IMG/VR virus record: IMGVR_UViG_2531839149_000016
Reading direction: 5' to 3' (one strand)
Source of the DNA: a virus
Lineage: Duplodnaviria > Heunggongvirae > Uroviricota > Caudoviricetes
DNA length: 26,648 bases
The position numbers and the translations under genes were made by a program. Under the pieces are notes generated by a model. That model made no database searches. It saw nothing but the letters and a program-made list of their open reading frames with translations, and was not told the origin of the DNA. Position 1 is the stretch's first letter; each line of letters opens with the position of its first letter. Shown in pieces: positions 7,458-17,236 of this stretch.

Positions 7458-8285
7458 TTAAACTTGGGGAAGTATTTTTTTTGCAAAATCAATAGTTTCT
7501 TTGTGGTTGGATGCAGGTATATGATTTATTTTCTTAGCATCCATAGTTCTCTTTATGATGTCAATAACTTTGCTTTGGCCTGAGTTTGGTGATTCAGGAG
7601 TTTCAATTGTGAATAAAATGTCATCAAGTGAAAGCAGGTTTTCTTCTGCTGCTCGAGTTATTCTCATCACCCAAGTATCACTATGCTCCATCATTTTTCC
7701 TGGTTCAGCTTGAGTGAATGCCAGAGGTTTGATGGCACATTGGATCCTGTCATGCTTCTTGGCGACCAATGGCATTGAGAACTTTGCGAAATACCCATCA
7801 ATGGTTGCTTGTTTGAAGACGTTCTTCAATCCATCTATTCTATCGATACTTCGTTTTAGCTCTCTGGCTAGAACATCTTCACGGCGCTCTTTTGTGTAGT
7901 CAGAGTGGTTTACATATTTATTGTAAATGCGGGCCAGCTCTTCTTTTGGGTTTTCGCTGAGAATCACTCTCGTAGAACTGAACTGAAAAATTGATTCTTT
8001 TTTGTTTGTAAAATATCTGAAGAATTGTGCAAGTTGTTGATGTCCAACAATCTGGGTCGCATGCATTTTTGCGAACTGTAGTTCTCTTTGTATTGAGTCT
8101 TTTGCTACAGGGAAAATACAATCATCATGGAAAAAATTCTTTACACGAGAGTCATTTCGCTTTGTGAGCTGGAAATCAAAGTAATTTTCTTTTGGCGCGC
8201 ACAGAAGTACGCCTATGTTTGCGAATTCTTCAGTCTCCGCATAAGGCGCATAGCGAACGATGCTATATAGGCATGGAGTTGTCAT
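7458..8285 (-). CDS. DUF3037-family protein
   Basis: ORF starting MTTPCLYSIVRYAPYAETEEFANIGVLL…, the characteristic N-terminal signature of DUF3037 proteins as I recall it; its ATG overlaps the upstream gene's stop (ATGA), implying translational coupling; the track ORF extends to 8300 from a non-ATG start. Confidence 0.75.
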   Translation of the reverse strand: MTTPCLYSIVRYAPYAETEEFANIGVLLCAPKENYFDFQLTKRNDSRVKNFFHDDCIFPVAKDSIQRELQFAKMHATQIVGHQQLAQFFRYFTNKKESIFQFSSTRVILSENPKEELARIYNKYVNHSDYTKERREDVLARELKRSIDRIDGLKNVFKQATIDGYFAKFSMPLVAKKHDRIQCAIKPLAFTQAEPGKMMEHSDTWVMRITRAAEENLLSLDDILFTIETPESPNSGQSKVIDIIKRTMDAKKINHIPASNHKETIDFAKKILPQV

Positions 8286-9031
8286 TCTATTGCGCTCCAA
8301 AATTCATCACAATCACCTTTGTCTAGCGTAGTGCAGACAAAAGGTAAAAACTCCTCATCTACTATCCACTCTTCTGGAATTTCGTCAAGGATAGCAGGAA
8401 GCTTGTGTAAACTGTTAACGACCCTCTGGCGGTACTCTACGCGATCCACTAAATCATATTGCCATTTGCGGTTACCAGGGCCGTACACGTGCACAGAAAA
8501 ATCTTCAGGTCCAGCATTCTGATCAAATGAGAGATTATGGTCAATCAGATAATACTTATCGTTACTGATGTCATAAAGGATGTTAACGTTTCCACCTTTG
8601 TCAGTAAGCGTTCTGTCTGCATTTAATATCCATTTATCAAAAACATAGATTAATTTTTGCTGTTCGACTGGGATGATCGTTTCGTTTCTTGACTGCGTAA
8701 ACGTTAACGCTATTGCACCGTCAATGAACAATGAAGCAAAGGCATATCCTGTACAAATTTGTTGCTGCAGATCAGGTGAGTACTCTATAAGTTCCTCTGG
8801 CACAAATACGATTTTAAAGTCAGGTAAAGGAAGGCCGATATCATTAGCCAAACACGCCGAAATGAACTCAGCTAAGAGATTTTTCGGGGGCATTGATGGT
8901 TTTGACTTCAAAACATACAACTGCCCATCATCACATTTGCAAAGAAATGGCTGAGTGGAACCTTCATTGATGCGACGTATTACTTCAACGACATTAGGTA
9001 TTGCACTATTGCTGCTCGCTACGCACTCCAT
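8282..9031 (-). CDS. Small HipA-like / protein-kinase-like-fold protein (putative Ser/Thr kinase)
   Basis: About 250 aa; kinase-like motifs readable in the translation: beta3-Lys (YVLKSK), catalytic-loop-like ILNADRTLTDKGGNVNIL (D…N), and a DFG-like LIDHNLSF; AAGGG RBS 6 nt upstream of the ATG at 9031. Confidence 0.65.
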   Translation of the reverse strand: MECVASSNSAIPNVVEVIRRINEGSTQPFLCKCDDGQLYVLKSKPSMPPKNLLAEFISACLANDIGLPLPDFKIVFVPEELIEYSPDLQQQICTGYAFASLFIDGAIALTFTQSRNETIIPVEQQKLIYVFDKWILNADRTLTDKGGNVNILYDISNDKYYLIDHNLSFDQNAGPEDFSVHVYGPGNRKWQYDLVDRVEYRQRVVNSLHKLPAILDEIPEEWIVDEEFLPFVCTTLDKGDCDEFWSAIE

Positions 9032-10873: not shown

Positions 10874-11362
10874 ATGGCAAACACTGCTGAGATATTCAAT
10901 TTTCCAGTGCCGGATGCGGCACAAAAGGAGCCGCGCGTGGCAGATCTCGATGATGGTTATACGCGCATTGCAAATGAGTTGCTGGAAGCTGTAATGCTGG
11001 CCGGATTAACACAGCACCAGCTTCTGGTCTTTCTGGCTGTCATGCGCAAAACATATGGCTTTAATAAAAAACTGGATTGGGTTAGCAACGAGCAACTTTC
11101 CGAATTAACCGGGATATTGCCGCACAAGTGTTCTGCTGCAAAAAGTGTTCTGGTAAAGCGTGGGATTTTTATTCAGAGCGGGCGGAATATCGGCATCAAT
11201 AATGTGGTCAGTGAATGGTCAACATTACCCGAATCGGGTAAGAAAAATAAAGTTTACCTGAAAGAGGTAAATTTACCTGAATCAGGTAAGAAAAGTTTAC
11301 CTAAATCAGGTAAAGGCGTTTACCCGAATCAGGTAAACACAAAAGACAAACTAACAAGGTAA
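10874..11362 (+). CDS. O: Replication initiator O, N-terminal iteron-binding domain (lambda O-like); terminated by an in-frame TAA
   Basis: MANTAEIFNFPVPDAAQKEPRVADLDDGYTRIANELLEA… aligns with the lambda O N-terminus (…NVADLDDGYARLSNMLLEA…); GGGAGGA RBS upstream; the coding region contains the iterons. Confidence 0.8.
   Translation: MANTAEIFNFPVPDAAQKEPRVADLDDGYTRIANELLEAVMLAGLTQHQLLVFLAVMRKTYGFNKKLDWVSNEQLSELTGILPHKCSAAKSVLVKRGIFIQSGRNIGINNVVSEWSTLPESGKKNKVYLKEVNLPESGKKSLPKSGKGVYPNQVNTKDKLTR
11225..11336. repeat. ori: Origin of replication iterons: five near-palindromic repeats of about 17 bp, consensus TTACCTGAATCAGGTAA
   Basis: Repeats at about 11225, 11255, 11273, 11297 and 11320, inside the O gene and followed by an AT-rich stretch, the same architecture as lambda ori. 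Confidence 0.75.
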
Positions 11363-11383
11363 TGCTGCCAACTTACTGATTTA

Positions 11384-11824
11384 GTGTATGATGGTGATTT
11401 TAAGGTGCTTGCGTGGCTTCCATTTCCATCAGATGTCCTTCCTGCTCCGCTACTGAAAGCGGATGCTGCGATTCAGAACGGCAGCAAGTGGGGGACAGCA
11501 GAAGACCTGACCGCCGCAGAGTGGATGTTTGACATGGTGAAGACCATCGCGCCATCAGCCAGAAAACCGAATTTTGCAGGGTGGGCTAACGATATCCGTC
11601 TGATGCGTGAACGTGATGGACGTAACCACCGCGACATGTGTGTACTGTTCCGCTGGGCCTGCCAGGACAACTTCTGGTCCGGTAACGTGCTGAGTCCGGC
11701 CAAACTCCGCGACAAGTGGACCCAGCTCGAAATCAACCGAAACAAGCAACAGGCTGGCGTGACAGCCGGCAAACCAAAACTCGACCTGACGAACACTGAC
11801 TGGATTTACGGGGTGGATTTATGA
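11384..11824 (+). pseudogene. O: Replication protein O, C-terminal (P-interacting) portion, same frame as the N-terminal part but separated from it by a TAA at 11360-11362
   Basis: ORF ends …TNTDWIYGVDL with an ATGA overlap onto P, as the lambda O C-terminus does; it has only a GTG start and no RBS of its own; in-frame with the upstream O ORF. Confidence 0.6.
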
Positions 11825-13296: not shown

Positions 13297-13857
13297 ATGA
13301 AGAAGATAATATTATTAGCCATGATTATTGGTTCTTTAACAGGTTGCGCTAGTGTGCCACCATTGAATTTTTCAACACCTAACGTGGGAGTTAGCCAGAA
13401 AAAAATAGATGCTGAAATTAAGTCATTAACGGTATCACTTGCTCGTCCAGATGAGCAGAAAGGGGATATCACTGCTGGTATGGAGGCTATAACTCCAATT
13501 TGGCGTGAATCTTTGCAGGAAGCACTCGACCGAATGACTATTTTTCGTGATAGTTCACCAAATACGGTTAGCTTAAATGTTAAAGTGTTGGCTCTTGACG
13601 TTCCTGCTTTTGGTGTTTCAATGACAACTAAAGCAATTGCAAGGTATGAAATAATCAACCGTGCGAATGGTGATATTATATATACGCAGGATATTGAGTC
13701 TACCGGTACTGTTCCAGCCAGTTACGCATTCTACGGTATTGTTCGAGCACGCGAATCTGTTAATCGCGCGGTGCAAAACAACATAACGCAGTTCTTGCAA
13801 GCATTAGAAAGTGTTGATCTTTCTCGTCCAATGTTTCCTGTTAGGGTAGCTAAATGA
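13297..13857 (+). CDS. Hypothetical lipoprotein
   Basis: Signal peptide with lipobox (MKKIILLAMIIGSLTGC); 186 aa; stop overlaps the start of the next lipoprotein gene (ATGA). Confidence 0.7.
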   Translation: MKKIILLAMIIGSLTGCASVPPLNFSTPNVGVSQKKIDAEIKSLTVSLARPDEQKGDITAGMEAITPIWRESLQEALDRMTIFRDSSPNTVSLNVKVLALDVPAFGVSMTTKAIARYEIINRANGDIIYTQDIESTGTVPASYAFYGIVRARESVNRAVQNNITQFLQALESVDLSRPMFPVRVAK

Positions 13858-14306
13858 AGCGATTATTCGTAATTGCTCCACTCTTAGTGTTGGTTGGATG
13901 CGCACAAAATATATCGCCAAATAGTTATTCTGTTGGCTCTGTGGGCATGGTTAATCGAACTATCGCTGGTACAGTTATTAGTGCCAGGGGGGTTGATATC
14001 AGTGGGACTTCCGCGTTAGGCGGGACTGCTGGGGCTGCCGTGGGGGCAACCGCTGGTTCTGCGCTTGGTGGGGGAGTTCGTTCTAATATCGTTGGTGCCG
14101 TTGGTGGTGCAGTCATTGGTGGTATTGCCGGGGCAGCAATCGAATCTTCAGCAACAAAACAAACAGGCATGGAATATGTTGTCGAAACTGAGAATGGGAA
14201 TTTAATGACCATTGTTCAAGGCAAAGATCCGTTATTTACTCAAGGAAGTAAGGTCCTTGTTTTATACGGAAACCCTTCTCGCATAATAACAGACCCGCGT
14301 CACTAA
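13854..14306 (+). CDS. Glycine-zipper lipoprotein (SlyB/Pcp-like, 17-kDa-antigen-type)
   Basis: Lipobox (LLVLVGC) followed by a Gly/Ala-rich segment (GGTAGAAVGATAGSALGGG…GAVGGAVIGGIAGAAI) typical of glycine-zipper outer-membrane lipoproteins. Confidence 0.7.
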   Translation: MKRLFVIAPLLVLVGCAQNISPNSYSVGSVGMVNRTIAGTVISARGVDISGTSALGGTAGAAVGATAGSALGGGVRSNIVGAVGGAVIGGIAGAAIESSATKQTGMEYVVETENGNLMTIVQGKDPLFTQGSKVLVLYGNPSRIITDPRH

Positions 14307-15405: not shown

Positions 15406-15764
15406 ATACCTACAACATCACATTACCCTGGCCTCCGAGCAATAATCGCTATTACCGCCATAATCGCGGGCGCACGCACGTCAGCGCAGAGGGGCAGGCA
15501 TACCGCGATAACGTCGCCCGAATCATTAAAAACGCAATGCTGGATATCGGCCTGGCTATGCCTGTGAAAATCCGCATTGAGTGCCACATGCCGGATCGCC
15601 GTCGCCGTGACCTGGATAATCTGCAAAAAGCCGCTTTTGACGCACTCACTAAAGCAGGTTTCTGGCTGGATGATGCTCAGGTCGTTGATTACCGCGTTGT
15701 GAAGATGCCTGTTACCAAAGGTGGGAGGCTGGAACTGACCATCACCGAAATGGGGAATGAATGA
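15402..15764 (+). CDS. rusA: RusA Holliday-junction resolvase
   Basis: 120 aa (GTG start overlapping the ybcO stop) [46 protein letters not shown]…, matching E. coli RusA as I recall it. Confidence 0.93.
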
Positions 15765-15901
15765 TGTTTGAGTTTTATATGGCAGAACTTCTTCGCCACC
15801 GCTGGGGGCATCTGCGCTTATATCGTTTCCCCGGTTCTGTTTTGACCGATTACCGAATACTGAAGAATTACGCCAAAACCCTGACAGGAGCAGGAGTATG
15901 A
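15761..15901 (+). CDS. YlcG-like small protein (46 aa)
   Basis: [49 protein letters not shown] read by eye; overlaps the rusA stop, as ylcG does in DLP12. Confidence 0.55.
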
Positions 15902-15986
15902 AGTCAGAGATAACAATCAACTAATACTGTTTTGTTGATTTTTGCTTGTGATTGGCGTTCTGGTCTGATTTTTGTGGAGTAAGTTG

Positions 15987-16364
15987 ATGCGTGATATTCA
16001 GATGGTTCTTGAGCGTTGGGGAGCGTGGGCGGCTAATAATCATGAAGATGTGACTTGGTCGTCCATTGCCGCCGGTTTTAAGGGATTAATTCCTTCAAAA
16101 GTAAAATCTCGCCCGCAATGTTGTGACGATGATGCGATGATCATTTGCGGGTGCATGGCCCGTCTGAAAAAGAACAACAGCGATTTGCATGATTTATTGG
16201 TGGACTATTATGTCGGCGGCATGACTTTTATGGCGCTTGCACGTAAGCATGGGCGATCTGATTGTTGGGTTGGCAGGATGCTTCAGAAAGCTGAGGGCGT
16301 AGTGGAGGGTATGCTGATGGTGTTGGATCTCCGATTGGAGATGGATGCTGATTGTTCGAAATAA
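15987..16364 (+). CDS. Q: Late-gene antiterminator Q (QuuD / phage-21-type)
   Basis: [62 protein letters not shown]… matches DLP12 QuuD as I recall it; the track ORF begins slightly upstream at a TTG. Confidence 0.85.
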
Positions 16365-16464
16365 TTAAAGGAAAAGTTGCTGTCTGATTGTCATTAGTCT
16401 AACATTTTAAATGTTGGAATCACAACGTAGTTATTATCATATAACAGCTTGTTTCCTGATTTAG

Positions 16465-16491
16465 CCAGCCTCCCCAAAGGCTGGTTTTTTT
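16465..16491 (+). terminator. tR'-like intrinsic terminator of the short late-promoter transcript (stem CCAGCC / GGCTGG, then TTTTTTT)
   Basis: Hairpin plus 7-T tract about 100 bp downstream of Q, where pR'/qut/tR' sit in lambdoid phages. Confidence 0.6.
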
Positions 16492-16519
16492 CTAATAAGT
16501 ATTATTTCGGGTAGGGATT

Positions 16520-17044
16520 TTATTGTTTAACCCATAATAATTCATTGACATTGAATCCCAACTTTTGAGCGGTTCGCACATAGTCTGCTTTTACTTTATC
16601 TGGAATAGTTGGGGTCCTTGCCAGAATCCATAGGTATTCTCTGTTCGGACCACTGACAAGAGCATACTTATACTCATCATCCAGTTTGATTACATTATAG
16701 CCACCATAGAAGGGGCCAAAAAACGAAACCTTCAATGCTGCAGTTTTAGTATCTCCAGTAAAGTATGCTTTACCTTCGCTCTCGCTCCATTTATTTTTCG
16801 TTGGATCGTATCCACGGTTAAGTACACGAATCCCTCCGTCGTTCCGTTTTCCATAAGTAGCGCTGACCTGTTCCAGACCACGTTCGAACCGGTTCTCGAG
16901 GCGAGCTATTTCATACCATTTTCCGAGGTAGCGGTTGGCGTCAAAATTTGTAATCGGCTGCACACCTTTAGGTGGTGTCGGGGCCTTACATGCTATAAGA
17001 GTGAAAGAGAGTGCAATGCCAGTCAACACAGGCCATAACTTCAT
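16520..17044 (-). CDS. Blc-like outer-membrane lipocalin (lipoprotein)
   Basis: 174-aa ORF with lipobox (LIAC) and strong resemblance to E. coli Blc (…NFDANRYLGKWYEIARLENRFERGLEQVSATY…FFGPFYGGYNVI…EYLWILARTPT…), but clearly divergent from the chromosomal blc. Confidence 0.85.
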   Translation of the reverse strand: MKLWPVLTGIALSFTLIACKAPTPPKGVQPITNFDANRYLGKWYEIARLENRFERGLEQVSATYGKRNDGGIRVLNRGYDPTKNKWSESEGKAYFTGDTKTAALKVSFFGPFYGGYNVIKLDDEYKYALVSGPNREYLWILARTPTIPDKVKADYVRTAQKLGFNVNELLWVKQ

Positions 17045-17236
17045 AATAAATCCTGTACTTTTGATAGTTGAGAGTAAGTATGAAAGATAGATGATTACGA
17101 CCGATCACTTAAAGAACTTTCATACTATATTAGGAATAGTCCATAACAGAAAAATTGTCAGTGATGACGCCAGAAAGGCAATTTATTCCGTGCACTACAC
17201 AGTTTATGTGTTAATGAATTAGTCAAGGGGGAGAAT

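Follow-up and report, generated by a model that had tools for sequence, protein, structure and literature searches.

The closest described relatives of the locus examined here belong to lambda-like coliphages of the infant gut (1H12, Lambda_2E9, Lambda_ev058 and others), where more than half of the lambda phages are listed with blc as a moron (Mathieu et al. 2020, PMC6969025). That study gives the gene its name, without experiments on it or discussion of where it came from. In these phages a lipocalin gene lies behind the late-gene antiterminator gene Q on the minus strand and is followed, on the plus strand, by ybgA/rudS, an AraC-like regulator gene and the holin gene. The first of these neighbours has a known activity: RudS strips the UVA-sensitive base 4-thiouridine (s4U) from tRNA, rudS genes occur in LitR/MerR light-responsive operons, and the RudS_vir of phage 1H12 reduces tRNA s4U in vivo (PMC11417400). 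A second described occupant of the slot is nmpC of the prophage DLP12, an outer-membrane protein moron that is likewise antisense to late transcription. The lc porin gene of phage PA-2 is another outer-membrane moron situated between Q and the lysis genes. The Blc protein of E. coli itself (b4149; structures 1QWD, 2ACO and 3MBT) is the product of a core gene in a gdx-blc-ampC-frd locus. Blc-family lipocalins are also mobile in another setting, as blc copies beside ampC-type beta-lactamase genes in 364 plasmid places in E. coli. These copies, which presumably derive from Citrobacter freundii, are about 67% identical in nucleotide sequence to the phage gene and differ from it in travelling with a resistance gene and without a phage.

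The gene order of the infant-gut phages recurs in the window, by which we mean the whole stretch of 26,648 nucleotides that was analysed. The window's phage is a defective prophage that occupies the lambda attachment site and is flanked by ybhC and the bio operon. Its backbone is that of DLP12, with 95% nucleotide identity on the Q side and 93% on the other, but homology to DLP12 stops at position 16346 and resumes at 19455. Where DLP12 carries a porin gene, the intervening 3.1 kb (16347-19454) hold three cargo genes, encoding a lipocalin, RudS and an AraC-like regulator; the two prophages are also unlike between the end of Q and the terminator. The cassette is 89% identical in nucleotide sequence to that of the infant-gut phages, whose lipocalin is 97% identical in amino acids, and 99% identical to that of phage IdasGreatGrand. 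The window's copy differs from the infant-gut phages in lying in a defective prophage with a frameshifted AraC-like gene.

On the upstream side, the cargo is bordered by the gene for a QuuD-like Q protein of 125 residues (15987-16364, plus strand; Pfam Phage_antitermQ, PF06530, E = 2.5e-51), for which the RefSeq annotation of a 99.9% identical prophage gives the same CDS. On the downstream side the late operon resumes with its first lysis gene, which encodes an EssD-like holin (19466-19681, plus strand; Pfam Phage_holin_2_1, E = 2e-35; essD in RefSeq). As expected of a moron, the lipocalin gene lies between two conserved modules, Q and holin, and its place is taken by nmpC on the same backbone in DLP12. 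The G+C content is about 36-48% for the lipocalin and rudS genes, 30-34% for the AraC-like gene and about 50% for the Nin region and the lysis genes; for the lipocalin gene the departure from the flanks is modest.

The first-pass annotation of this DNA had described phage cargo in the slot behind Q and a terminator, running antisense to late transcription, and both statements agree with the positions of Q (15987-16364), the terminator (16463-16493) and the lipocalin gene (16520-17044, minus strand). The antisense orientation is ordinary for the slot, the nmpC gene of DLP12 being antisense too. The interval that it gave for the feature, 16365-17100, does contain the gene, but the coding sequence proper occupies only 16520-17044, so that the interval also takes in the Q-lipocalin intergenic region and part of the upstream region. 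It overlooked the three-gene extent of the cargo and the neighbouring rudS, a gene with an experimentally shown function (PMC11417400).

The neighbouring rudS gene (17237-18196, plus strand) encodes a ybgA-like fusion of TudS/DUF523 and DUF1722 domains (Pfam 2-thiour_desulf and DUF1722), a tRNA 4-thiouridine desulfidase of 319 residues. Compared with the Lambda_2E9 copy, its sequence is 93% identical, and residues Cys12, Cys44 and Cys110 are retained. The YbgA protein of K-12, which is 48% identical, consists of the DUF1722 domain only, and the E. coli chromosome has no full-length rudS counterpart. The third cargo gene, an AT-rich, YdeO/GadX-like regulator gene of the AraC family (18548-19278, plus strand), is a frameshifted pseudogene; RefSeq calls it "frameshifted" in the 99.9% identical prophage, and both reading frames are visible. 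In its intact form, a protein of 243 residues in Lambda_2E9, the matches to YdeO and GadX fall below the cut-offs.

Of 5426 complete E. coli genomes, 1146 contain the lipocalin region, and 992 cover the cargo segment to 80% or more. In 21 of 24 sampled records the cargo segment lies behind a Q gene, the rest being truncated matches. As part of the same cassette, the gene is also present in 12 sequenced lambda-like phages, in 11 of which it is annotated as "Lipocalin Blc". The lipocalin is therefore a common, already published phage passenger gene, and the earlier view that a phage-borne lipocalin is unusual does not survive the 1146 genomes, the 12 phages and the published moron (PMC6969025).

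The spacer between Q and the terminator (16365-16462, plus strand) is where the late promoter pR' would be expected, and it contains a block, ATATAACAG, common to DLP12 and Lambda_2E9. A consensus scan of 16365-16462 returned no pR' site of 9/12 or better; by eye, a weak candidate can be made out, with TTGCTG (16377-16382) and TAACAT (16400-16405) separated by a 17-nt spacer. Next comes an intrinsic, tR'-like terminator (16463-16493, plus strand), recognised by a terminator scan and by folding, in which the hairpin AGCCAGCC..GGCTGGTT, with a G+C-rich stem of 9 bp, is followed by T7. It is the sole terminator-like site across 15900-19500 and is kept in Lambda_2E9; a 96-nt sequence that includes it has a folding energy of -26.5 kcal/mol (z = -4.8). 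For the minus strand, z is -0.5 and the hairpin is not followed by a U tail, which indicates that it terminates plus-strand transcription only. An Rfam scan of 15500-20000 at permissive E-values gave just two sub-threshold chance matches; the one to "Betaproteobacteria toxic sRNA", which reached 28.6 bits where the gathering score is 50, is the terminator hairpin itself.

The lipocalin gene converges on Q and tR', with a gap of 26 nt to the latter, and the sole hairpin 3' of the gene, when read on the lipocalin strand, is not followed by a U tail. This arrangement could mean that it is the orientation that matters, with lipocalin transcription toward Q, pR' and tR' damping late read-through in the lysogen and the protein being secondary. 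The close convergence on tR' would suit such a role, as would the like direction of nmpC in DLP12; moreover, because the minus-strand hairpin lacks a U tail, lipocalin transcripts could extend past it and reach the pR' region and Q. However, a purely transcriptional role needs no strong purifying selection on the amino acid sequence, the terminator is strong by itself, and the chromosomal gene is equally constrained where there is no late operon. We regard this explanation as very improbable.

The lipocalin gene itself (16520-17044, minus strand; identified from the ORF list and family matches) encodes 174 residues from an ATG start and falls into a paralogous lineage that we call lineage A. 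Pfam Lipocalin_2 (PF08212) matches the whole protein (E = 7e-44; 149.7 bits against a cut-off of 24). The NCBIfam model NF007786, "outer membrane lipoprotein Blc", gives 316 bits over positions 1-174 of 176, above its curated cut-off of 267, and the nearest solved structures are those of E. coli Blc (3MBT, 1QWD and 2ACO; E about 1e-68). As read from the translation, the N-terminus MKLWPVLTGIALSFTLIAC|K forms a lipoprotein signal peptide (16988-17044, minus strand) with the lipobox L-I-A-C, a Cys19 that is predicted to be acylated, and Lys20 at position +2, a non-Asp residue consistent with outer-membrane sorting. Its alignment to the ..FLVVAC-S of Blc is gapless, with a position-for-position match through the signal peptide and Cys19. 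These matches bear out the initial identification of a Blc-like lipoprotein lipocalin: the ORF is a real Blc-type lipocalin and, judged from its sequence, is predicted to be lipid-anchored on the periplasmic face of the outer membrane.

Is the gene still under selection for its product? We defined the ligand pocket by the Blc residues that lie no more than 4 A from heme, in a cavity shared with vaccenic acid (PMC8177097). Eighteen of these 19 residues are identical in the phage lipocalin, and the remaining one is a K77 to R replacement; the pocket is near-invariant in both lipocalin paralogue lineages. Between two phage alleles (dS = 0.19), dN/dS is 0.065, comparably low to the values for Q and holin. 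The conserved pocket and the low dN/dS together argue that the lipocalin gene is functional. They also bear on whether the lipocalin might be a passive hitch-hiker, with selection acting on rudS or on the AraC-like regulator instead. That idea is reasonable insofar as the activity of RudS has been demonstrated and is missing in E. coli, the three cargo genes occur together in 992 genomes, and the promoter of the lipocalin gene went unconfirmed in a consensus scan. Yet the dN/dS of the lipocalin gene is below the 0.11 of rudS, and its pocket is intact. Furthermore, T7Express, a derivative of E. coli B, keeps the lipocalin gene whole and has rudS truncated beside an IS3 element, and in the window it is the AraC-like gene that has decayed and the lipocalin gene that has not. 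We consider passive carriage quite unlikely.

We then compared the phage gene with its chromosomal relatives. With E. coli Blc it shares its length, the lipobox Cys19, an ungapped alignment and the fold family, but only 104 of 174 residues are identical to K-12 Blc (60%), with 66% nucleotide identity across 363 nt. The closest chromosomal lipocalins, from Enterobacter, Leclercia, Cedecea, Buttiauxella and Serratia, are 77-81% identical. In a neighbour-joining bootstrap tree built on p-distance/Kimura distances, from which one locus with a 3-residue translation (L031) was left out, the phage and module lipocalins are split from the frd/gdx-linked Blc group with 98.7% bootstrap support, and at 7 of 7 discriminating positions the phage lipocalin has the residue of the module type. 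The phage gene has no frd, gdx or efp neighbours and lies on the opposite side of the tree from the blc orthologues; conversely, merR, rudS and the operon described below are absent from the neighbourhoods of all 11 frd/gdx-linked Blc loci. The two genes also differ in their distribution, host blc being a separate core gene present in 5425 of 5426 E. coli genomes and the phage gene being prophage-borne and present in about one fifth. From these comparisons, the phage lipocalin lineage is distinct from host blc.

Identity to the host blc locus had been named at the outset as the sign of a chromosomal rearrangement in place of phage cargo; the two are not identical (60% in amino acids, 66% in nucleotides), and host blc is a separate gene. 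The earlier description of the lipocalin as related to but divergent from Blc is right about the divergence, but what it implicitly took for a diverged copy is a member of a separate paralogous lineage. A diverged duplicate of E. coli blc, acquired through aberrant excision or rearrangement, would likewise pass the NCBIfam cut-off for "outer membrane lipoprotein Blc" and have E. coli Blc as its top solved-structure match. Against such an origin stand the lower identity to K-12 blc than to the lipocalins of other genera, the bootstrap-supported split from frd/gdx-linked Blc with non-Blc residues at all seven discriminating positions, and the adjacent rudS, to which nothing of full length corresponds in the E. 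coli chromosome. In addition, Buttiauxella izardii has both lipocalin paralogues at separate loci. We consider descent from host blc effectively refuted.

The genomic contexts of the closest chromosomal homologues are of two kinds: these genes adjoin either merR and rudS, or merR and a SnoaL2-SDR-amine oxidase-DUF1365-CMAS-DUF2878 operon. Lipocalin-merR-rudS modules are found in Enterobacter, Leclercia, Buttiauxella, Raoultella and Serratia rubidaea, and clusters of the second kind, in which the CMAS is UfaM-like, in Cedecea and Scandinavium; across them, identity to the phage proteins is 74-81% for the lipocalin and 69-73% for RudS. The layout of the chromosomal module is a lipocalin gene, a divergent merR gene (MlrA/LitR-like) and then rudS, often next to a UfaM-type fatty-acid-modification operon, which E. 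coli lacks. In the phage the lipocalin gene is divergent from rudS, an orientation that matches the chromosomal loci L009, L011-L017, L019 and L020, and the lipocalin upstream regions of phage and modules are colinear as well. Unlike the phage, however, the modules possess merR and an inverted-repeat operator upstream of rudS, the sequence ACTTGGACAAA-N8/9-TTGTGTAAGT being conserved in L003, L004, L006 and L011-L020. A search of the phage for ACTTGGACAAA-N8-TTGTGTAAGT found only degenerate half-site-like strings with shortened spacing, and a tblastn search (E <= 10) of the intergenic region of the window and of Lambda_2E9 found no merR remnant. Because both the merR gene and its operator are missing from the phage, any light regulation would have been lost.

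We propose that an ancestral phage took the lipocalin and rudS genes jointly from a lipocalin-merR-rudS module and subsequently lost the regulator gene. A blastn search of the cargo against 90 loci, aimed at finding a donor, yielded none: nucleotide identity was only 65-74% and was confined to coding sequence, so none of the sampled module genomes is the direct donor. With no close donor (74% at most), the case for co-capture is built on the shared neighbourhood and on the similar divergence of the two genes, each of which is 65-74% identical in nucleotide sequence to its chromosomal copies, and not on a continuous homologous segment.

Several observations link these modules to light stress. 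In Pseudomonas, an SDR-FAD oxidoreductase-UfaM cluster is light-inducible, with no mention of a lipocalin (PMC9758184), and in Chryseobacterium a light-induced lipocalin lies beside crt genes (PMC7064467). Among the loci examined here, two distant lipocalin loci (L067 and L089) abut photolyase genes. Drawing solely on the Pseudomonas and Thermus literature, we infer that the chromosomal modules may be induced by blue/UVA light. In the literature we found nothing that joins a lipocalin with ybgA and MerR, or with DUF1365.

The lipocalin and rudS genes diverge from an intergenic region (17045-17236) that is colinear with the sequences upstream of lineage-A lipocalin genes and appears to be what is left of the stretch between lipocalin and merR in the chromosomal modules. 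On the lipocalin side it contains a -10-like CATACT (17082-17077, minus strand), and a TATATT (17126-17131, plus strand) points to rudS. Two boxes, AATATAnTAnGAA and (C/T)A(C/T)ACTT, stand at equal distances from the ATG in the phage and lineage-A lipocalin genes. The -10-like CTACACT of K-12 blc, whose distance from the ATG is comparable to that in the phage gene, aligns with the second box, and the module lipocalin genes also have CTACACT there. The E. coli blc promoter is reportedly RpoS-dependent, a finding attributed to Bishop and colleagues in 1995. The promoter search that the first-pass annotation had suggested came back empty, as a sigma-70 consensus scan of the minus strand upstream of the lipocalin gene found no promoter and left only the -10-like CATACT; statements about the promoter consequently rest on alignment to relatives. 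The CATACT is without the -13 C typical of sigma-S promoters, and no -35 element is evident.

With these features in hand, we can outline how the cargo might be expressed. In the lysogen, the lipocalin gene would be transcribed toward Q from its own weak promoter, of a -10-only, sigma-S-like kind, while tR' would shield it from constitutive transcription from pR'. Upon induction, Q-modified RNA polymerase would pass tR' and run antisense over the lipocalin gene, and in the sense direction through rudS and the lysis genes. Given this antisense late read-through, the lipocalin would be a lysogen-phase product, and rudS could be expressed in the lytic phase too. Both genes would now be driven by leftover, regulator-independent promoters.

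What might the lipocalin do in the lysogen? To judge from its sequence, it most likely acts as a second Blc, expressed in the lysogen, with envelope lipids or tetrapyrroles as the molecules that it handles. As Blc does, it would bind lysophospholipids, fatty acids or tetrapyrroles in its beta-barrel cavity, and the lysogen would gain a second, differently regulated dose of Blc activity for envelope maintenance under stress. Given the source module of the gene, photo-oxidative stress may be part of this. The gene's presence on a phage had at first suggested selection for a function in the envelope or in lipid handling, and this is plausible, with purifying selection and the conserved pocket in its support. 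Taken as a whole, the reading that this is a functional moron of lambda-like prophages, encoding a lysogen-expressed, module-derived Blc-type lipocalin with Blc-like ligand binding, has in our estimate a probability of roughly three in four. The literature on Blc counts against it to some degree, as the role of Blc itself is read in two ways, one centred on lysophospholipids and the other on heme/tetrapyrrole (PMC8177097). A "Blc" (UniProt A0A7U9G1P7) is up-regulated in membrane proteomes of STEC (PMC9731836), and this may be either paralogue.

Alternatively, the lipoprotein could serve the phage, by blocking a receptor or changing the envelope so as to exclude superinfecting phages, in the manner of Llp of T5 and Cor of phi80. 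FhuA-blocking lipoproteins of the outer membrane are well known from prophages. The lipocalin gene is on the lysogen-phase strand, and among lambda morons, which often encode membrane proteins, exclusion genes are some of the commonest (PMC6969025). On the other hand, Blc is not known to be linked to any phage receptor, and the phage protein is constrained in the same way as its relatives on chromosomes outside phages: both lineages have a near-invariant pocket, and phage copies diverge from module lipocalins no more than the latter do among themselves. These shared constraints favour ancestral ligand binding over a new protein-protein interaction, and we give superinfection exclusion little credence.

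Beyond second-Blc activity in the lysogen lies a bolder possibility, which we put forward tentatively and think rather unlikely as a whole: that the lipocalin and RudS form a regulator-less, portable photoprotection kit that lambda-like phages have spread through about one fifth of E. coli. RudS would remove s4U, and at the outer membrane the lipocalin would sequester or clear either tetrapyrroles that act as photosensitisers or lipids in photo-oxidised or lyso form. As late transcription reads rudS in the sense direction, RudS would also guard translation in UV-triggered prophage induction. The E. coli chromosome has neither a full-length RudS nor a lipocalin of the phage-type lineage.

As found, there is nothing out of the ordinary about the lipocalin gene, a phage passenger that has already been catalogued. 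Its practical bearing extends to laboratory B strains in common use, which carry the lipocalin together with a truncated rudS, a matter of consequence where they serve as null backgrounds. The statement that E. coli lacks RudS (PMC11417400) is true of the core genome and false for the roughly 18-21% of strains with the prophage cargo. Finally, the phage "blc" is routinely taken for a copy of host Blc, whereas our analysis shows it to be the other enterobacterial lipocalin paralogue. Its co-capture with RudS from a MerR-controlled, light/UVA-linked cluster would provide a testable context for the Blc/ApoD/TIL family, whose bacterial function has been debated since 1995.

The region that the first-pass annotation had assigned to an antisense, divergent Blc-like lipocalin (16365-17100) contains one real gene, and its coding sequence is narrower: 174 codons at 16520-17044 on the minus strand. 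A Pfam Lipocalin_2 match spans the whole product (E = 7e-44), the score against the NCBIfam model "outer membrane lipoprotein Blc" is 316 bits (curated cut-off 267), and the best solved-structure matches are E. coli Blc entries 3MBT, 1QWD and 2ACO (E ~1e-68). The N-terminus, MKLWPVLTGIALSFTLIAC-K, has a lipobox, Cys19 and a Lys at +2, the same layout as in Blc. The antiterminator gene Q (PF06530) lies at 15987-16364 on the plus strand, and between its stop codon and that of the lipocalin gene we found a G+C-rich hairpin followed by seven Ts (T7; 16463-16493, plus strand). This was the sole terminator-like site within 15900-19500; its fold scored z = -4.8 against shuffles on the plus strand only, and the minus-strand reading lacks a U tail. 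The open reading frame, the family and structure matches and the hairpin together bear out an antisense lipocalin gene located beyond Q and its terminator.

One explanation for such a gene is that it is a diverged copy of host blc. Aligned with chromosomal blc of K-12, it proved not to be identical: the proteins share 60% amino acid identity (104/174; 63% across the mature part) and the genes 66% over 363 nt. The nearest proteins outside E. coli, 77-82% identical, come from Enterobacter, Leclercia, Cedecea, Scandinavium, Buttiauxella, Huaxiibacter, Kosakonia and Serratia rubidaea. At ten species-representative loci (L009, L011-L017, L019 and L020), the lipocalin gene is adjoined by a divergent MerR-family gene encoding MlrA-type domains and, beyond that, a rudS/ybgA-like gene, an arrangement that we refer to as the module. 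An operon of SnoaL2, SDR, amine oxidase, DUF1365, CMAS and DUF2878 genes comes after the same lipocalin-merR pair in Cedecea and Scandinavium. An operon of the SnoaL2-CMAS type in Citrobacter braakii ends in a DUF3833 gene and a rudS-like gene, and no other named relative is closer to the phage rudS than this last gene (76%). Lipocalins that are 57-61% identical to the phage protein occupy the frd-(ampC)-blc-gdx-efp locus at 11 loci, as E. coli blc does, and module genes were found at none of these 11. Buttiauxella izardii encodes one lipocalin of each type. A neighbor-joining tree (300 bootstraps) separated the phage copies and all module-linked lipocalins from all frd/gdx-linked Blc proteins and the outgroups with 98.7% support, and the phage protein is module-type at all seven alignment positions by which the two groups can be told apart. 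The tree split, these residues, the gene neighborhoods and the 60% identity rule out a diverged copy of host blc. The description "Blc-related but divergent" was thus right that the protein differs from host Blc, but the sequence relationships place it in a second enterobacterial lipocalin lineage rather than among divergent Blc copies.

We found the lipocalin region in 1146 of 5426 complete E. coli genomes, and 992 of the 5426 had at least 80% of the 3.1-kb cargo covered. The cargo match also covers a Q gene in 21 of 24 sampled records, the other 3 being truncated matches. Because host blc was found in 5425 of the 5426 genomes, the prophage gene is truly a second lipocalin. The exact protein is encoded on at least 1000 contigs, and the cassette occurs in 12 sequenced phage genomes; that of IdasGreatGrand is 99% identical to the window's, while those of 1H12, Lambda_2E9 and the Lambda_ev series are 89% identical and annotated "Lipocalin Blc". 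Of the infant-gut lambda phages of Mathieu et al. (2020; PMC6969025), more than half carry blc, which is listed there as a moron. A phage-borne lipocalin had been considered unusual, a view that these counts, annotations and that publication do not sustain. The gene is indeed phage cargo and does differ from host blc, but it is a common, annotated and published moron of low novelty. Our literature search found no experimental work on the phage lipocalin.

Among the other matches, a 2113-bp contig (L010, JARKOR010000135.1) from a "Candidatus Nanosynbacter sp." MAG, a Saccharibacteria bin, is 99% identical to the prophage segment from the end of Q through the lipocalin gene to the start of rudS, and is almost certainly a binning contaminant. 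On a 66-kb E. coli plasmid (NZ_CP056038.1, match H44), positions 36624-36952 match the first 329 nt of the phage lipocalin gene at 73.6%, compared with a lower 67% for the usual plasmid blc copies; this plasmid lipocalin gene may belong to the module type.

The cargo comprises three genes, two of which run divergently from the lipocalin gene beyond its start. The first is rudS (17237-18196, plus strand), whose 319 codons specify a TudS/DUF523 domain fused to DUF1722. The second, an AraC-family gene (18548-19278, plus strand), is AT-rich (30-34% G+C), frameshifted in the window and intact in Lambda_2E9 (243 aa). Its product resembles YdeO, GadX and HilD, scoring below their family cut-offs, and the gene and the lipocalin-rudS pair probably joined the cargo in separate events. 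Prophage-encoded acid-resistance regulators of this kind are known from EHEC (PatE and PsrA/B). A holin gene follows from 19466. The window shares its backbone with DLP12, a cryptic prophage of K-12: a 95% block runs from upstream of ybcN via ninE, ybcO, rusA and ylcG into Q, and a second common block, at 93% identity, runs through essD and rrrD into rzpD. Homology stops at 16346 and restarts at 19455, and we therefore define the cargo segment as 16347-19454. In DLP12 the slot holds nmpC, which is likewise antisense to the late operon, so antisense cargo at this position is ordinary.

As a whole, the window represents a defective lambda-like prophage that sits between ybhC and the bio operon, at the E. 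coli lambda attachment site. A stretch of NZ_CP031653.1 is 99.8-99.9% identical to it, and the only parts without alignment to that prophage are a ~96-bp piece within the replication-gene region (11358-11453) and the last 3 kb (23643-26648), where an ORF that starts at 25365 is still open after 427 aa and runs off the end. Between ren and the ybcN/NinB-like gene lie a second ORF and a gene (13854-14306, plus strand) for a predicted 150-aa lipoprotein that starts MKRLFVIAPLLVLVGC; it matches the glycine-zipper family Rick_17kDa_Anti weakly and below threshold (E = 3e-4), and is possibly a further membrane moron of this prophage. A HipA-family kinase and DUF3037 gene pair at ~7458-9031 on the minus strand (coordinates converted from L001, the annotated 99.9% identical prophage) adjoins the S24-peptidase repressor gene, and is possibly toxin or defense cargo in the immunity region.

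The phage lipocalin and rudS genes each share 65-74% DNA identity with their chromosomal copies, confined to coding sequence, which suggests that the donor is unsampled or that the capture is old. Their equal divergence and retained divergent arrangement point to joint capture. We argue from these comparisons that the lipocalin gene probably arrived with rudS from a MerR-controlled module and that the regulator was lost; no trace of merR was found in the phage. A chromosomal version without merR also exists in Huaxiibacter. An inverted repeat, ACTTGGACAAA-N8/9-TTGTGTAAGT, is conserved before chromosomal rudS genes and SnoaL2-CMAS operons and absent from the phage. It is found, also in the form ACTTGGACAAA-N8/9-TTGTGTAAGTTTTA, ~60-100 nt upstream at L003, L004, L006 and L011-L020, and is likely the operator of the adjacent MlrA/LitR-like MerR regulator. 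No description of it was found in the papers searched.

The 192-bp region upstream of the phage lipocalin gene is colinear with the chromosomal lipocalin-merR intergenic region, and a box, AATATAnTAnGAA, and a -10-like box stand at the same distances from the ATG in phage and modules. The latter reads CATACT in the phage (17082-17077, minus strand) and CTACACT in the modules and K-12 blc. On its other strand, the first box reads TATATT (17126-17131, plus strand), which points at rudS in the phage and would be the merR promoter in chromosomes. A consensus scan called neither site, and both are therefore weak, -10-only candidates. Bishop et al. reportedly found in 1995 that blc is sigma-S dependent; such dependence cannot be asserted for the phage lipocalin. 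For pR' there is a weak candidate (TTGCTG-17-TAACAT, 16377-16405) and a conserved ATATAACAG block, and we are not confident of the promoter's position. In a lysogen, constitutive pR' transcripts would end at the 16463-16493 hairpin and the lipocalin would be made from its own promoter. After induction, Q-modified polymerase would pass the terminator, and late transcription would run antisense over the lipocalin gene and in the sense direction through rudS and the lysis genes.

Between two phage alleles, those of the window and Lambda_2E9 (dS = 0.19), we obtained dN/dS values of 0.065 for the lipocalin, 0.11 for rudS, 0.085 for Q and 0.074 for the holin. In T7Express, a derivative of E. coli B, the lipocalin gene is intact and rudS is cut to its first 147 nt beside an IS3 element. 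The dN/dS values, this loss of rudS and the decay of the AraC-like gene in the window all indicate that the lipocalin is maintained in its own right, and it is under purifying selection. The T7Express_Crystal locus (L093, NZ_CP053594.1, 2141-4730) runs from Q through the lipocalin gene and the rudS remnant to IS3, in a Qin-like prophage (hokD, rem). T7Express-type strains hence retain the lipocalin gene and provide natural rudS-minus, lipocalin-plus backgrounds.

At the residues that contact heme in the Blc co-crystal (<=4 A), the phage lipocalin is identical at 18 of 19, the other being a Lys to Arg change; the heme cavity of Blc is also its vaccenic acid cavity (PMC8177097). Because the pocket is essentially invariant across both paralogue lineages, the two most likely bind the same ligand class, with regulation and context rather than chemistry setting them apart. 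Candidate in vivo ligands of Blc itself are, on one view, lysophospholipids and fatty acids and, on another, heme or a different tetrapyrrole.

Published work links gene sets of this kind to light. TudS-DUF1722 fusions, named RudS, strip 4-thiouridine (s4U) from tRNA; RudS_vir of Escherichia phage 1H12 was among the enzymes tested, overexpression of RudS genes lowered tRNA s4U 4.7- to 26-fold, and a Pseudomonas RudS made the UVA-induced growth delay shorter (PMC11417400). The window RudS is 93% identical to the Lambda_2E9 copy and keeps the cluster cysteines Cys12, Cys44 and Cys110. The same study states that E. coli has no RudS homologues, whereas the cargo, with full-length prophage RudS, occurs in ~18-21% of complete E. 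coli genomes. It also places rudS genes in light-responsive operons under MerR-family LitR regulators and, in Enterobacter cloacae, beside a MerR gene (PMC11417400). In Pseudomonas, an SDR-FAD oxidoreductase-UfaM cluster is light-inducible under a class II LitR (PMC9758184), and a Chryseobacterium lipocalin gene beside carotenoid genes is light-induced (PMC7064467). A second, independent association of lipocalin and light-response genes is seen in a Crocinitomicaceae MAG (L067, 8584-9849) and a Bacteroidales MAG (L089, 8682-9944), in each of which a photolyase homologue ends just upstream of a Blc-family lipocalin gene. That the lipocalin and RudS form a photoprotection kit, spread by phages without its regulator, seems to us unlikely. 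Gene context and the literature on these other genera make a neighborhood for light or photo-oxidative stress a plausible chromosomal home for this lipocalin lineage.
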